A stretch of 64,000 bases of DNA from a virus. A program made the position numbers and the translations under genes. The stretch lies in the IMG/VR virus record IMGVR_UViG_3300021256_000065; one strand, written 5' to 3'. The notes beneath the pieces were generated by a model. The model worked only from the letters and a program-made list of their open reading frames with translations. It did not search any database and was not told the origin of the DNA. This document shows, piece by piece, positions 27,924-64,000 of this stretch (the first letter of the stretch is position 1; every line of letters begins with the position of its first letter).

Positions 27924-28055
27924 TTTTTATCCTCCATAGTATAAATAAAATTAATATGAAATCTTAACAATTTCATTTAAAAATTTTCTTCTTCTATATA
28001 TAATATAAAAAATGTCTTTTTTTAATTATTTTATCTTGACCGTAGGAAAATTTTC

Positions 28056-28084
28056 TTGATCTTTTATTAAAATTTTGTTATAAT
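28056..28084 (+). promoter_or_regulatory. First early promoter in the divergent switch region.
   Basis: TTGATC…TGTTATAAT (28076-28084), upstream of the phosphoesterase gene. Confidence 0.45.
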
Positions 28085-28144
28085 TTTAATAAAGATAAAA
28101 GGAAAAAGTATTAAAACATTTAAAATAATATAGGAGGAATGTTT

Positions 28145-28897
28145 ATGAGTGTATACGCGTTTTCAGATATACATGCTCAATATAATCTTTGGACACAAAT
28201 TAAAGAATATATTAAGCCAGAAGATACTGTATATTGTCTGGGAGATTGTGTAGATCGCGGCAATGTCGGCCTTGAAATTTTAAATGAAGTTATGGAAACT
28301 CCTAATATTATTCTTCTTCGAGGAAACCATGAAGATTTCATTGACAGTATTGGTTCTGAAGTTATGCACTATAAGCCCAATGAAGAGGTTTATTGGGCAG
28401 TTCCTAATATAGAACTTTGGTATGCAAATGGCGCAGAAAATACCATTAAAGCCTTTAATGAACTGTCAAAAGGAAAGAAAAAATGGCTTATTAATAAAAT
28501 TAGAAAACTTCCTACTCATGCAGAATACATCAATTCTAATGGTAATATAATTTATCTTTGTCATGCGGGAAGGCAACCAAATACAAAAGAAATTAAAGAT
28601 ATGCGGACAGGTGACATTCCAATGAATAATTATATTTGGGATCGGACTCATATTGGTAAATTACATTGGGATGGAAAGGATAATGAATATTGTGTTCATG
28701 GGCATACTCCAATTGAATATATGTATTGTTATCTTAATCAAAAGGCCGATTTCCCAACAACCAGATTCAAAATTTATAAATATTGTGATGGACATAAAAT
28801 TAATATTGATTTAGGCTCTTTTCGTACTCATCGTACATGTTTATTAAATCTTGATACCTTTGAGCCAATTTATTTTGAAGATAAGGAGAATAATTAA
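28145..28897 (+). CDS. Calcineurin-like metallophosphoesterase (Ser/Thr phosphatase fold).
   Basis: Motifs AFSDIHAQ, GDCVDRG and RGNHE. RBS TAGGAGGAA. TAA stop. Confidence 0.6.
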   Translation: MSVYAFSDIHAQYNLWTQIKEYIKPEDTVYCLGDCVDRGNVGLEILNEVMETPNIILLRGNHEDFIDSIGSEVMHYKPNEEVYWAVPNIELWYANGAENTIKAFNELSKGKKKWLINKIRKLPTHAEYINSNGNIIYLCHAGRQPNTKEIKDMRTGDIPMNNYIWDRTHIGKLHWDGKDNEYCVHGHTPIEYMYCYLNQKADFPTTRFKIYKYCDGHKINIDLGSFRTHRTCLLNLDTFEPIYFEDKENN

Positions 28898-28898
28898 A

Positions 28899-29186
28899 AT
28901 GGATAAATATTTGATTAATAAAAATGAATTATTAGCATTTTTACGATATGAAATTCTTTATAAATGGAAATGTGTTGCAGAAACTAATGATAAGGCAAAA
29001 AATTTTTCATATTATTTACAGAATGAAACCCCATATCATCCAAATTCAGAATTTATTCAATCTTTGTGTAAAACAAAAGAAGAACATGATGATCCTGTTG
29101 GAACAATGGTCTATGAAGATATTCTGCCTGCAGATGTAGCAAGATACCAGGCCGCCACTTTATATAAACCTTATAAGGAGAGTTAA
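28899..29186 (+). CDS. Hypothetical protein.
   Basis: ATG at 28899 after TAAGGAGAATAATTAAA. Confidence 0.4.
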   Translation: MDKYLINKNELLAFLRYEILYKWKCVAETNDKAKNFSYYLQNETPYHPNSEFIQSLCKTKEEHDDPVGTMVYEDILPADVARYQAATLYKPYKES

Positions 29187-29216
29187 AAATCTCTCTTTGT
29201 TTTTTATTATATTTTT

Positions 29217-29225
29217 TGTTATAAT
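29217..29225 (+). promoter_or_regulatory. Extended -10 promoter (TGTTATAAT), member of the repeated family.
   Basis: T-run then TGTTATAAT. RBS and ATG ~25 nt downstream. Confidence 0.5.
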
Positions 29226-29251
29226 GTATATAAAGATAAGGAGGAATAGTT

Positions 29252-29677
29252 ATGACAAATACAGGAATGTTTGAATTATGTTATCTTTATTATGATGAAA
29301 AAACAATGGAACATGCAAAAAGAGTTGCTAATGAAGCACAAAATCTTTGTAAACTTTTTAAACTTCCTTATACAAATTATGATAAATTTGTTTATCAACT
29401 CGGTTTAGCACATGATTTATATGAAGATACAAATATTAAACAAGGTGCTTGGTTTGATTACGATTTTGAAGAAAATCTTCAACTTTTAACAAAAGAAGAA
29501 GATGTAGATTATAATGATTATATTGCGAAAATTCGTGGAATGGCAATGAGTAATCCCAAATACCTGCCTGCATATATTGTAAAACTCGCAGATATGCATG
29601 ATCATTTTGCACAAGTTGATACATTAACTGATAAACTTAAAAATAAATATGCGGCGGCGATGCCCTATTTAATTTAA
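29252..29677 (+). CDS. HD-domain phosphohydrolase-like protein.
   Basis: His...HD signature (LAHDLYEDT). RBS TAAGGAGGAATAG. Confidence 0.4.
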   Translation: MTNTGMFELCYLYYDEKTMEHAKRVANEAQNLCKLFKLPYTNYDKFVYQLGLAHDLYEDTNIKQGAWFDYDFEENLQLLTKEEDVDYNDYIAKIRGMAMSNPKYLPAYIVKLADMHDHFAQVDTLTDKLKNKYAAAMPYLI

Positions 29678-29692
29678 GGAGGAGATAAAAAT

Positions 29693-29872
29693 ATGAATAA
29701 AAATACTGGAAGTAGTATTGGATTACTTGATGTTATTTTAGTAGTAAATATTGTACTTAAACTTATTGGTGTAATTAATTGGAGTTGGTGGATAGTATTA
29801 TGGCCTCTTTGGGTTAGTATTGCAATTATGATTATTTTTATTATTATTGTAAAAGTTTTTTAGGGATTATAA
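29693..29872 (+). CDS. Small hydrophobic two-TM protein (not in the ORF track).
   Basis: Strong RBS TAAGGAGGAGATAAAAAT. MNKNTGSSIGLLDVILVVNIVLKLIGVINWSWWIVLWPLWVSIAIMIIFIIIVKVF-TAG-GL-TAA. Confidence 0.35.
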
Positions 29873-62140: not shown

Positions 62141-62583
62141 TGAAAATATATACCTCATATTTTTATCAAATTCGCAATTTCAAACAAAATATGATTCCTA
62201 TATCAACTTGTCTATCAGACCCTGAATGGTTTAAACCGCCAAAGGGAAAAGAATTTTATATAGATAAAAGAGGTATCATATGCGGGCTCCGCTATGAACC
62301 TCTTATAGTCCAGTCTCAAGGAACACATTATTGTCCCTGTGAAGAAAAAGAAATATTAAAAGGTAATTGCCCTACAATGAAGGAATATAGACAATTACTT
62401 GAAACTGTTGATTTTGATAAAATGATAAAAGCATTTGAATTTTGTTTAAATAAATTTCATAAAGATACTATTGTTTTAATAGTTTATGAAGCATCAAATA
62501 ATCCATGTAGTGAAAGAAAGAACTTACAGGAGTATTTTAACAATCATGAAATAGAATGTAAAGAATTAGAATATCCAATATAA
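62140..62583 (+). CDS. Hypothetical protein.
   Basis: 147 aa with a Cys/His cluster (HYCPCEE…GNCP). Confidence 0.4.
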   Translation: MKIYTSYFYQIRNFKQNMIPISTCLSDPEWFKPPKGKEFYIDKRGIICGLRYEPLIVQSQGTHYCPCEEKEILKGNCPTMKEYRQLLETVDFDKMIKAFEFCLNKFHKDTIVLIVYEASNNPCSERKNLQEYFNNHEIECKELEYPI

Positions 62584-62816
62584 TATTAAAACAATAATAA
62601 TAAAAGACAAATATAATACAGGAAAAGAATTATTAAATTATATTCTAAAAGAAAAATATAAAAACAATATTAATTTTATAAAAATTACACAAGATAATTT
62701 TAAACTATTAGATCAGGAACATTTAATAATAAAATGGACAGAAAATTATCCTGGAGCAATTTACTATCATACTACAGTTGCAGGGTTACCAATAAAAATT
62801 ATTTAATAAAAAAAAT

Positions 62817-62845
62817 TTGACAAACTCAAAAATTTTTTGTATAAT
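62817..62845 (+). promoter_or_regulatory. Consensus promoter driving the candidate ncRNA.
   Basis: TTGACA, 17-nt spacer, TGTATAAT. Confidence 0.55.
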
Positions 62846-62851
62846 ATAATT

Positions 62852-63010
62852 GTAAGAAATAAATATGCAGAAAGAGAGGTACGGTCCAATGGGCTAAACA
62901 ATTTTTGTAACCCGTGAATTAATGTAATTATGGAGGGCACTCCAATGGACAATGTAGCTTAAATATTTATTCTTTAACCGAGTCAAGCGAGGCAACTCGC
63001 TTGACTTTTT
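62852..63010 (+). ncRNA. Candidate structured small RNA between a consensus promoter and an intrinsic terminator.
   Basis: TTGACA (62817-62822), a 17-nt spacer and TGTATAAT (62838-62845) lie upstream. A GAGTCAAGCGAG/CTCGCTTGAC hairpin plus T-run lies at 62981-63013. Only a 10-codon ORF is present. Internal repeats TCCAATGGG / TCCAATGGA. It does not fold as a canonical tRNA. Confidence 0.35.
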
Positions 63011-63015
63011 TATTT
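62981..63015 (+). terminator. Intrinsic terminator ending the candidate ncRNA.
   Basis: GAGTCAAGCGAG-GCAA-CTCGCTTGAC then TTTTTTA. Confidence 0.6.
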
Positions 63016-63021
63016 ATTTAT

Positions 63022-63029
63022 TGTATAAT
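63022..63029 (+). promoter_or_regulatory. Extended -10 promoter (TGTATAAT) upstream of the polymerase gene cluster.
   Basis: TTATTGTATAATATAAATATATAATATAAT. Confidence 0.4.
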
Positions 63030-63065
63030 ATAAATATATAATATAATCATTGGAGAATGAGAATA

Positions 63066-63216
63066 ATGATGAAAAAATTATTAATAAATATTTTAACAGA
63101 AGAATATGAATTAAATCTTTTTGAAAGCGAAAAAATTATTGAAAAATTATTTTATATTTTAGAAAATGATTTATTAAAATGGAATAAAATAGAATGTAAA
63201 TGGGAGATAATTTAAT
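63066..63216 (+). CDS. Small hypothetical protein.
   Basis: Preceded by a TGTATAAT promoter and GGAGAATGAGAATA. Overlaps the next ATG. Confidence 0.25.
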
Positions 63217-64000
63217 GAAAAGATTTGAACCTCACTCTCACTCTGAATTTTCGAATATACGATTATTAGATTGTATTAATAAAATTCCAGCTCTTATTGA
63301 TAGAGCAATAGAAATAGGTTTATGTGGAATTGCATTAACAGATCATGAATGTCTGAGCGGGCATCCCGAAGCTAATTTTTATGCTCAGGATATTTTAAAA
63401 GGTCATCCAGATTTTAAAGTAGCATTAGGTAATGAAATATATTTAACACCCAATAGAGAGATGGGCCAGAAATATTATCATTTTATTTTAATAGCAAAAA
63501 ATAAAACTGGATTTAGAGCATTAAAAGAATTATCTTCAAGAGCATGGATGAATAGTTATTGGGATCGCGGTCTTGAAAGAGTCCCAACAATTTATAATGA
63601 ACTTGAAGAAATTGTTAATAAATATCCTAATAGTTTAATTGCAACAACTGCATGTATTGGCGGACAAGTATCTTCTCAAGTTTTAAATTTAATTAAAGCT
63701 GAAAAACATGAAGATACTGCGGGAATTACTGAGGCACATAATAATATTGTAAATTTTATTTTATGGTGTAAAAAATTATTTGGAGAAGATTTTTATATTG
63801 AATGTGCACCAGGTCAATCAAGTGAACAAATTGCGGTTAATAAACGTCTTAAGGCTGTGGCCGCCGCATTTAAATGTAAAATGGTTCTTGGCTCAGATGC
63901 CCATTATCTGACAAAAGAAGATAGATTTGTTCATAAAGCATATCTTAATTCAAAAGGGGGAGAACGTGAGGTTGATGCGTTTTATGAATATGCTTATCTT
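63217..64000 (+). CDS. DNA polymerase III alpha-type PHP domain protein (partial; continues past the window end).
   Basis: MKRFEPHSHSEFSNIRLLDC…GLCGIALTDHECLSGH…SDAHYL shows PHP-domain His/Asp motifs. No stop within the window. Confidence 0.65.

Follow-up and report, generated by a model that had tools for sequence, protein, structure and literature searches.

The amber codon TAG is read as a sense codon in several groups of gut phages, namely the crAss-like, Lak, Jade, Sapphire, Garnet and Topaz phages (Borges et al., bioRxiv 10.1101/2021.08.26.457843; Peters et al., PMC9523058). In these amber-recoded phages, TAG is found in structural, lysis and homing-endonuclease genes, a tRNA(CUA) is encoded by the lineage, and a translational timer or lock has been proposed. 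According to Borges et al. (10.1101/2021.08.26.457843), the replication genes keep the standard code and the late, lysis and homing-endonuclease genes are recoded, together with a suppressor tRNA; TAG-to-Gln and TGA-to-Trp were the only reassignments observed. Here we analyzed a stretch of 64,000 nucleotides (the window) from IMG/VR virus record IMGVR_UViG_3300021256_000065, in which TAG is likewise a sense codon in one set of genes and missing from another, and whose host presumably uses the standard code as do the hosts of the gut phages. Alignments with orthologs drawn from 143 related loci or contigs (labelled Lnnn where one has to be named) suggest that TAG in this phage and its clade very probably stands for glutamate, not glutamine. 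Positions refer to the window unless a locus is named.

TAG in the genes of a rumen SPbeta-like phage

The closest relative of the window is an IMG/VR contig of 133,873 bp that is 96–99.8% identical to it across all overlaps, and there are dozens of relatives of 117–144 kb, one of which is labelled 'ruminal'. A megablast search with 49 kb of the window against GenBank phages returned zero matches. By protein (tblastn), the best GenBank relatives are the Bacillus phages SPbeta, phi3T and BUCT083, with 40–43% identity in DnaB, and Enterococcus EF5-type phages. The virion genes of the relatives match the Pfam families YonG_N, YonD_N, YonB, YomW, YomV and YomU. Because of these DnaB and Yon/Yom matches the phage is SPbeta-like, and the window is part of a siphovirus genome of about 134 kb from rumen metagenomes. 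Genome bins were an ambiguous guide to the host: the bins of rumen metagenome-assembled genomes (MAGs) are labelled Endomicrobiaceae, Lachnospiraceae and 'Cyanobacteria', and probably represent mis-binned phage contigs.

Genes lie on the minus strand in positions 1–28000 and on the plus strand in 28000–64000, and the GC skew changes sign at about 28.0 kb. When TAG is taken as a sense codon, open reading frames (ORFs) cover 0.95 of the minus-strand block instead of 0.59, and the longest has 3,121 aa instead of 587. Taking TGA as sense gives no gain. The tape measure gene (18061–27417, minus strand; 3,118 codons; PHROG tape measure, E = 3e-57) is an ORF only with TAG as sense and contains 85 TAGs, 27% of its Glu-type codons. 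The tail fibre gene (12710–17755, minus strand; 1,681 codons), which has a C-terminal chaperone-type domain and matches a PHROG tail fibre at residues 1540–1674, contains 24. Protein domains run across in-frame TAGs in these two genes as well as in the GIY-YIG, DHH/DHHA1/RecJ_OB and SH3b genes (Pfam, PHROGs), and TAA, the stop codon of 45 of the 57 called genes, remains the main stop. That TAG is a sense codon in this phage is thus hardly open to doubt.

The use of TAG differs sharply among genes. On the plus strand, 34 genes with 8,815 codons, including 680 GAA/GAG codons, have no in-frame TAG at all, and 24 TAGs are found in 11 genes with 2,145 codons. A first-pass annotation, made from the letters of the window alone, had listed early and replication genes as TAG-free, which was borne out. 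The names it gave to them (Metallophos, HD-type phosphohydrolase, Thg1, MVP shoulder, RNA ligase, AAA_33 kinase, RNase H, GyrB/GyrA-like topoisomerase, NAD ligase, AAA_24, DnaB, primase, PARG, Dda-like helicase and PHP) agree with Pfam and PHROGs, the primase through a weak Toprim match, and there are two Metallophos proteins. The TAG-bearing genes are those for an 81-aa SH3b protein (38676–38921), a Zn-ribbon/HNH-type homing endonuclease (39607–40404; PHROG HNH/homing endonuclease, E = 9e-39), a GIY-YIG protein (47955–48872), the g42 protein (49092–49979), a YorK-like DHH/DHHA1/RecJ_OB nuclease (58179–59978), a metallophosphoesterase (one TAG, codon 176 of 180) and a holin, together with four small ORFs (g35, g36, g48 and g57) that have five TAGs in all. 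The earlier counts for the SH3b (two), GIY-YIG (eight) and DHH (three) genes are correct, and so is that for g42 (one, at 49500–49502) if its start is placed at 49092; the Zn-ribbon endonuclease gene has three TAGs instead of two. The identification of g42 as ThyX-like finds no support in Pfam, and its sole match is PHROG 6721, of unknown function. The starts of g42 and of the primase gene were corrected before TAGs were counted.

At the TAG share of the TAG-bearing plus-strand genes, the probability of finding no TAG in 680 Glu-type codons is 1e-48, and it is 2.8e-9 at the pooled plus-strand share. A chi-square test of heterogeneity gives p = 7e-24 for all genes and p = 8.5e-13 for those of the plus strand, so that even the plus-strand genes by themselves differ far beyond chance. 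Genes called in the standard code lack in-frame TAG by definition, so the informative points are the neighbouring genes that require read-through and the preservation of the split in relatives. On the minus strand, 14 genes contain 125 TAGs, including those of the tape measure and tail fibre genes; the 'hundreds' formerly ascribed to the late operon come to this number in the window. The virion genes g03–g10 (2231–11659, minus strand) have 0–4 TAGs each, or 5–20% of the Glu-type codons in genes of at least 100 codons.

The split is kept across 16–66 orthologs per gene from related contigs. In aligned regions, no TAG occurs in 61 orthologs of DnaB, 54 of g44, 46 of g43, 31 of the Dda-like helicase, 29 of the ligase and 16 of topoisomerase A, and a single one occurs in 38 orthologs of Pol III. 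On the other hand, 36 of 41 GIY-YIG orthologs have 2–17 TAGs and 26 of 31 DHH orthologs have 1–12. The tail, terminase, portal and SH3b genes, two homing-endonuclease-type nuclease genes and the DHH/RecJ gene are TAG-bearing throughout the relatives, and none of the relatives examined has TAG in the replication core. Even in the distant phAss-1 genome the same families fall on the same sides of the split. We therefore regard conservation of the partition as practically certain. The recoded codon clusters in structural and lysis genes but is seldom seen in replication genes, the exceptions being the capsid and tube genes (TAG-free) and NrdD, NrdG and dUTPase (TAG-bearing). The earlier proposal that TAG gates late, lytic or toxic functions is supported in part: sense TAG is gene-selective and the replication core is free of it, but there is no clean division between early and late genes.

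Glutamate and glutamine at TAG

Orthologs derived from DNA were aligned with TAG kept as an unknown residue, and the other sequences were read in the same columns; a column was called conserved with at least 70% agreement and at least five sequences. Database proteins (P0001–P0120) were rejected for this purpose, since they were called with translation table 15 and have Q at every TAG. For example, P0072 differs from its own DNA (L147:10001–11737) at nine sites, each of them a TAG written as Q. Opposite TAG, the codon GAA fills 1,487 cells and CAA 479. Conserved TAG columns have a majority of E in 35 cases and Q in four among the window genes, and of E in 195, Q in 41, D in 18 and K in 17 among genes beyond the window. 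Overall, 230 conserved columns are of the GAA/GAG (E) type and 45 of the CAA/CAG (Q) type, a ratio of about 5:1, so that the expectation from table 15 fails. For TAG sites inside the window, the majority is E in 18 cases and Q in two. Many columns consist of TAG and GAA/GAG alone, without CAA or CAG. Codon 186 of g42 (49500–49502) is TAG in 13 orthologs, E in 17 and nothing else, and codon 244 of g53 is TAG in 12 and E in 10. Codons 149, 173 and 274 of the GIY-YIG gene (g41; TAGs at 48399, 48471 and 48774) are E in 19–26 orthologs. The TAG sites of the tail fibre gene are mostly E, D or K in three aligned orthologs, and one TAG of NrdG aligns with an Asp of PFL-activating enzyme. The first-pass annotation had suggested counting TAG under table 15, that is, as Gln; these alignments indicate Glu.

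The residue found at TAG sites in the nearest neighbour was then tabulated per locus. In most of about 55 loci of the clade with at least 20 sites it is E at about 55–80% and Q at 0–16%. The two most distant loci, L067 (IMGVR_UViG_3300013426_000018) and L068 (3300039366_000176), give Q at 47–62% and E at 3–7%. Since these two loci yield Gln under the same analysis, the method is able to return Gln.

The large terminase subunit, TerL, permits a comparison outside the clade, with 45 full-length representatives of less than 50% identity. At the 46 TerL columns with TAG, these distant homologs have E at a frequency of 0.31, K at 0.11, D at 0.09 and Q at 0.05. This profile resembles that of the clade's E columns, not that of its Q columns (Q, 0.28). 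The second Glu of the motif GGLMEE (E183, the putative catalytic residue of Walker B) is TAG in six clade sequences and E in all 45 distant homologs, and further columns with TAG are E in 35–44 of the 45. A Gln in place of the catalytic Walker B Glu inactivates such ATPases. The public records of this clade, with Q at every TAG, probably carry wrong residues at catalytic sites. On the strength of these alignments, we consider it very probable that TAG encodes Glu in this clade.

We also looked for the tRNA. The suppressor tRNA presumed by the first-pass annotation exists as a tRNA(CUA) in close relatives, but not in the window, where ARAGORN, including its intron option and lowered thresholds, found none. 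Its one hit at lowered stringency, a 100-nt tRNA-Ile(TAT) at 14752–14851 on the minus strand, lies inside the tail fibre gene and is very probably a false positive. An Rfam scan of 125 kb gave no hits. In the closest contig, the first genes of a tRNA cluster appear about 13 kb left of the window start, next to and downstream of a sigma-70-family factor gene that lacks TAG (L175:18571–19518 and L273:10001–10915; Pfam regions 1.2, 2, 3 and 4). This gene directly precedes the cluster in which relatives have the suppressor, and its product may drive middle or late transcription. The sigma factor of L273 is 100% identical to that of the closest contig. The gene order in L273 is tRNA-Ile, the sigma factor gene, Asn, Leu, Lys, Asp, tRNA(CUA) at 13529–13602, Met, tRNA(UUA), Asn, Ser, Ser, Asp, Val and Pro. 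A tRNA(CUA) is present in L273 and 14 other related loci, repeatedly in the order Asp-Glu(UUC)-Glu(CUC)-Sup-Met-Thr, where Sup denotes the suppressor.

These Sup tRNAs share with phage tRNA-Glu a 3-bp D stem, an 11-nt D loop (xAGyGGyTTAA) and, in several of them, a 4-nt variable loop; phage tRNA-Gln differs in its D stem (4 bp), D loop (8 nt) and variable loop (5 nt). Pairwise identities to typed tRNAs were uninformative, as all are 60–73% with no isotype signal, and covariance models were used instead. A model built from 17 phage tRNA-Glu sequences scores Glu tRNAs at 76–86 bits, Sup at 52–69, Asp at 52–65 and Gln at 38–55, and the four best Sup tRNAs (65–69 bits) come next after the true Glu tRNAs. 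A model built from six phage tRNA-Gln sequences gives 93–100 bits to Gln and 26–48 to Sup. This supports a Glu identity for tRNA(CUA). The Sup tRNAs are only about 60% identical to the adjacent tRNA-Glu genes and thus are not recent duplicates of them. Taken together, the codon columns and tRNA models make it probable that this rumen SPbeta-like clade reassigned TAG to Glu through an amber suppressor derived from tRNA-Glu, which the host glutamyl-tRNA synthetase (GluRS) would charge in spite of its CUA anticodon, and that TAG is Gln in sister lineages.

Other unusual genes lie among or beside tRNA genes. A tRNA-like gene with the anticodon UUA (ochre-suppressor type) lies at L273:14893–14967, 1.3 kb downstream of the tRNA(CUA), and was seen in this one relative only. 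Its D arm is Glu-like (TAGTCAAAAGGTTAAGAC) and its variable loop has 4 nt. As TAA is the main stop in the clade, one would not expect an efficient ochre suppressor. A PDDEXK_5 nuclease gene with a TAG at codon 8 (L273:13057–13479) lies between the tRNA-Asp and suppressor tRNA genes. In one subclade, a 98-nt tRNA-like gene is found beside tRNA-Leu(CAA), with the late operon about 2 kb downstream (L040:168–265, L042:168–265 and L148:5350–5447); the approximately 25 extra nucleotides between its D arm and T arm might represent either an intron or a long variable arm. The tRNA cluster of another related contig includes a transfer-messenger RNA gene (L211:14830–15107; tag ADNYTYQMAA*).

Other meanings of TAG can be weighed against these data. 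A Gln codon ('code 15'), with the partition as in crAss-like and Lak phages, would conform to all phage TAG reassignments in the literature that we searched. L067 and L068 indeed look Gln-type, the TAG sites of phAss-1 lean to Q and K, and the Q-dominated share of conserved TAG columns is about 13%. However, Gln is improbable for this clade given the excess of E over Q, the many columns with TAG and GAA/GAG alone, TAGs on invariant Glu residues of the distant TerL homologs including that of Walker B, and the lower scores of the Sup tRNAs with the Gln model; Q at such sites in database proteins is the caller's rendering of TAG. Pyrrolysine or another residue supplied by the host is a still more remote reading, whose sole support is the ARAGORN label 'tRNA-Pyl' on the CUA tRNAs. 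In tRNA-Pyl the D loop is very short and the variable loop has 3 nt. The CUA tRNAs, with an 11-nt D loop, a 4–5-nt variable loop and a standard cloverleaf, are unlike it, and the TAG columns are specifically rich in E, which does not fit pyrrolysine.

Gene timing, decoding cost and the layout of the window

We somewhat favour an overall explanation that joins a conserved, gene-selective use of TAG as Glu, read by the phage tRNA(CUA), with a translational lock. TAG would be decoded as Glu by a tRNA(CUA) with a tRNA-Glu-like body that is charged by the host GluRS. Genes needed before the suppressor accumulates (the replication and nucleotide-repair core and the sigma factor gene) would be kept TAG-free. 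Proteins made in very large amounts, such as the capsid and tube proteins, would also be kept TAG-free, probably because suppression is inefficient and competes with release factor 1. The remaining genes would drift to TAG or be selected for it. As a result, the terminase, portal, tail and SH3b proteins, the homing endonucleases and the DHH nuclease would stay unfinished in a cell without the suppressor.

Hairpins located before the holin-SH3b cassette and the GIY-YIG gene suggest a second barrier, at the level of transcription. Two scans of the plus-strand block found 16 terminator-like hairpins, where 7.2 and 5.8 were expected. One of them (38350–38379, plus strand; 13-bp stem and T-run) stands directly upstream of the ribosome-binding site of the holin gene (38403–38675, plus strand; Phage_holin_1, Pfam E = 1.4e-23), and another (47908–47936, plus strand; 13 bp with five GC pairs) immediately upstream of the GIY-YIG gene. 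In both cases the gap between hairpin and start codon leaves no space for a promoter, so the two genes would need terminator read-through. The single TAG of the holin gene is its final codon before TAA (...aaa tag taa ATG), and its product is identical in either code but for one residue. The SH3b gene, with an overlapping start, has TAGs at codons 8 and 12, ahead of the SH3_3 domain (Pfam, residues 30–81). Since it has no usable in-frame start downstream of them, the SH3b protein needs TAG read-through. The former statement that lysis-associated genes are rich in TAG thus applies to the SH3b gene, but not to the holin gene, which has no internal TAG. The cassette ends with a strong 17-bp terminator-like hairpin (38929–38966, plus strand), after which a sigma-70-like promoter match occurs at 38981–39009. 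The DHH gene has a sigma-70-like promoter match (58111–58139) and a hairpin (58098–58125) upstream.

Several observations weigh against this explanation. No suppressor tRNA was found in positions 9.3–87.9 kb of the closest contig, a stretch that stops just where the tRNA cluster begins, and the presence of a tRNA(CUA) in this phage, in a genome region beyond the window, is deduced from its relatives. GluRS normally reads the anticodon, so Glu charging of a CUA tRNA is hypothetical, and the tRNA isotype is deduced from similarity only. About 13% of the conserved TAG columns are dominated by Q, some of them from Gln-type relatives, and the decoding of TAG could be mixed. In L273, sigma-70-like promoter matches occur upstream of the tRNA cluster (10989, 11124 and 12134) and no plus-strand terminator was found there. 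The suppressor may thus be present early: the cluster lies in the early/middle plus-strand block behind these promoter matches, so strictly late expression is not indicated. Finally, timing alone does not explain the TAG pattern. In the closest contig, beyond the window, the late operon opens with TAG-rich terminase and portal genes, and TAG makes up 24% of the Glu-type codons in TerL. Yet TAG accounts for only 0.5% of the Glu-type codons in the major capsid gene, 0.5% in its 195-aa neighbour and 2.4% in the tube gene (22–35 orthologs), all of which are late. The NrdD, NrdG, dUTPase and guanylate kinase genes of the plus-strand block have a few TAGs each. The scarcity of TAG in highly abundant proteins is a sign that decoding carries a cost, and either expression level or this cost must help to shape the pattern.

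Such a cost might even account for the whole pattern. In that case there would be no temporal gate: the suppressor would be made early, GAG-to-TAG changes would accumulate where inefficient decoding is tolerated (low-copy proteins and selfish endonucleases), and TAG would be purged under selection for translational efficiency from genes of abundant virion proteins and of the replication machinery. This is unlikely on balance, although the late and almost TAG-free capsid, capsid-neighbour and tube genes, a TAG share that is continuous from 0 to 0.26 across families instead of falling into two classes, and the promoter matches before the L273 tRNA cluster all agree with it. The number and position of TAGs also vary widely among close orthologs, which suggests drift. 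On the other hand, replication enzymes are not needed in bulk and nevertheless are the strictest in excluding TAG (none in the DnaB, g44 and Dda orthologs), next to immediate neighbours with up to 17; the SH3b gene has two TAGs within its first 12 codons; and phAss-1, though distant, is TAG-rich in the same families. From these patterns we consider it about equally likely that the partition acts as a temporal lock and that it follows as a by-product from the cost of decoding. It could also be supposed that TAG is a true stop in the early block and that the TAG-bearing plus-strand ORFs are decaying or mis-called. A few cases look that way: the phosphoesterase TAG lies five codons before the end, TAA comes right after the TAG of the holin gene, the primase gene and g42 probably start downstream of the TAGs located 5' of them, and the ORF at 28924–29274 (two TAGs) is probably spurious, being overlapped by a TAG-free ORF (28899–29186). 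This is very improbable as a general account, for the catalytic domain of the GIY-YIG protein is encoded downstream of six TAGs and the DHHA1 and RecJ_OB domains downstream of all three DHH TAGs, full-length orthologs are found in 30–41 relatives, and TAG alternates with GAA/GAG in the same columns. A gene-selective Glu codon with a translational lock thus remains the explanation that we prefer.

The Zn-ribbon homing endonuclease family, with 0–6 TAGs in 21 homologs, is mobile. Relative to the window at about 61,546–61,570, the closest contig has a 1.1-kb insertion (L076:18582–19666) with an additional 254-aa Zn-ribbon copy (L076:18651–19415, three TAGs) and a 94-aa ORF; the window has no copy at this site, near 61,560. 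The Dda-like helicase segment beside the insertion is 87% identical, compared with 96–98% elsewhere, as expected after homing-associated co-conversion. The ruminal MAG contig L275 has extra GIY-YIG and Zn-ribbon endonuclease genes with 3–4 TAGs. The GIY-YIG gene of the window is syntenic in 41 relatives and phAss-1 and behaves as a core gene, despite matches to homing-endonuclease PHROGs through its C-terminal domain. Its protein is hydrophobic in an N-terminal segment and Q/E/K-rich in the central region, with the nuclease domain in the C-terminal part (Pfam GIY-YIG, 212–295), and the family is the most TAG-rich of the clade, with TAG in 26% of its Glu-type codons. The DHH gene has Pfam domains on both sides of its TAGs.

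The remaining plus-strand genes are arranged as follows. A TAG-free early block at 28139–37787 encodes phosphoesterases, an HD protein, Thg1-like, MVP-like and Pyr_excise proteins, an RNA ligase, a kinase and a DUF551 protein (Pfam, PHROGs). The genes for topoisomerase subunits B and A and NAD ligase (40397–47383) are TAG-free, and two small ORFs between the topoisomerase genes have three TAGs. The TAG-free replication core (50028–58109) consists of genes for a helix-turn-helix (HTH) protein, g44, AAA_24, g46, DnaB, primase, DUF3307 and PARG proteins, with the small ORF g48 (54730–54912, plus strand; one TAG) inside it. The Dda-like helicase gene, small ORFs and the start of the Pol III alpha gene occupy 60120–64000 and are TAG-free except for g57 (one TAG); Pol III alpha is 1,318 aa long, and its PHP end lies inside the window. 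The genes for the Thg1-like protein (29886–30713), the 830-aa MVP-shoulder protein (30765–33257) and the microbial PARG-like protein (57309–58109) are unusual for a phage and are all TAG-free; together with the RNA ligase and kinase, these proteins may form an RNA-repair or anti-defence set. DnaB of L275 (L275:8240–10855, in ruminal MAG contig JBGUZU010000044.1) has 871 aa, compared with 514 aa in the window, of which only residues 231–514 were matched, and probably contains an intein or another insertion.

Consequences and relation to known recoded systems

If TAG is Glu in this clade, the meaning of a recoded stop codon would have switched, or arisen twice, within one phage family. 'Code 15' calls for these phages would then show Gln at positions that are Glu in the protein, even at catalytic residues. 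Pipelines in the style of Prodigal-gv and Pharokka-gv and large databases use table 15, and many proteins of the clade would carry Q for E, including TerL at Walker B, which affects homology searches, structure prediction and functional inference. A second meaning would also show that the amino acid of a captured stop codon is not fixed by the synthetase that is easiest to hijack. A natural tRNA(CUA) accepted as a Glu tRNA would serve genetic-code engineering and test the anticodon dependence of GluRS, and related Gln-type and Glu-type phages would be a system for studying how a codon changes its meaning. The exemption of abundant virion proteins argues that decoding cost shapes the pattern alongside timing.

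One described recoded phage is the distant relative phAss-1 (proposed Phassvirus; OQ749652; Babkin et al., PMC10607447), with 44% identity in TerL, 53% in the major capsid protein (MCP) and 36% in Pol III, and no nucleotide similarity to the window. Its genome of about 136 kb is likewise TAG-recoded and has a large tRNA set. TAG is abundant in its GIY-YIG-like (8), DHH (4) and tape measure (110) genes and absent from its topoisomerase, Pol III, NrdD and MCP genes. phAss-1 was annotated as TAG-to-Gln (PMC10607447); in our alignments its TAG sites lean to Q and K, and those of its TerL are mixed, one being Q-type and one E-type. It has three dissimilar tRNA(CUA) genes (L144–L146), one of which is 88–91 nt long with a long variable arm. 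SPbeta and its relatives (Spbetavirus and Enterococcus EF1/EF5-type phages) match in genome size and gene set (YorI DnaB-like, YorL-like Pol III alpha, YorK-like DHH, a giant tape measure and Yon/Yom proteins), but SPbeta-type phages use the standard code, whereas the present clade is TAG-recoded and known from metagenomes only.

A literature search for TAG-to-Glu returned only ciliate or contamination contexts; its coverage was incomplete, and an earlier description elsewhere is possible. To our knowledge, the only catalogued code in which TAG is Glu is table 30 (peritrich ciliate nuclear), in which TAA and TAG are both Glu. The route was likely the same in both systems, a single base change of the tRNA-Glu anticodon from CUC to CUA. 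However, the ciliate code is eukaryotic and genome-wide, whereas in the phage TAA stays the main stop and TAG is used in part of the genome.

The gene-selective TAG pattern itself is of a kind already published, the model of Borges et al. (10.1101/2021.08.26.457843), who offer a parallel to the TAG-rich endonucleases in the intron endonuclease of TGA-recoded Agate phages. What is new here is a different amino acid, a different phage family and the exemption of abundant virion proteins: compared with the amber-recoded gut phages, TAG appears to stand for Glu instead of Gln, the phage is an SPbeta-like siphovirus with a probable Firmicutes host, and its major capsid and tube genes are spared from TAG.

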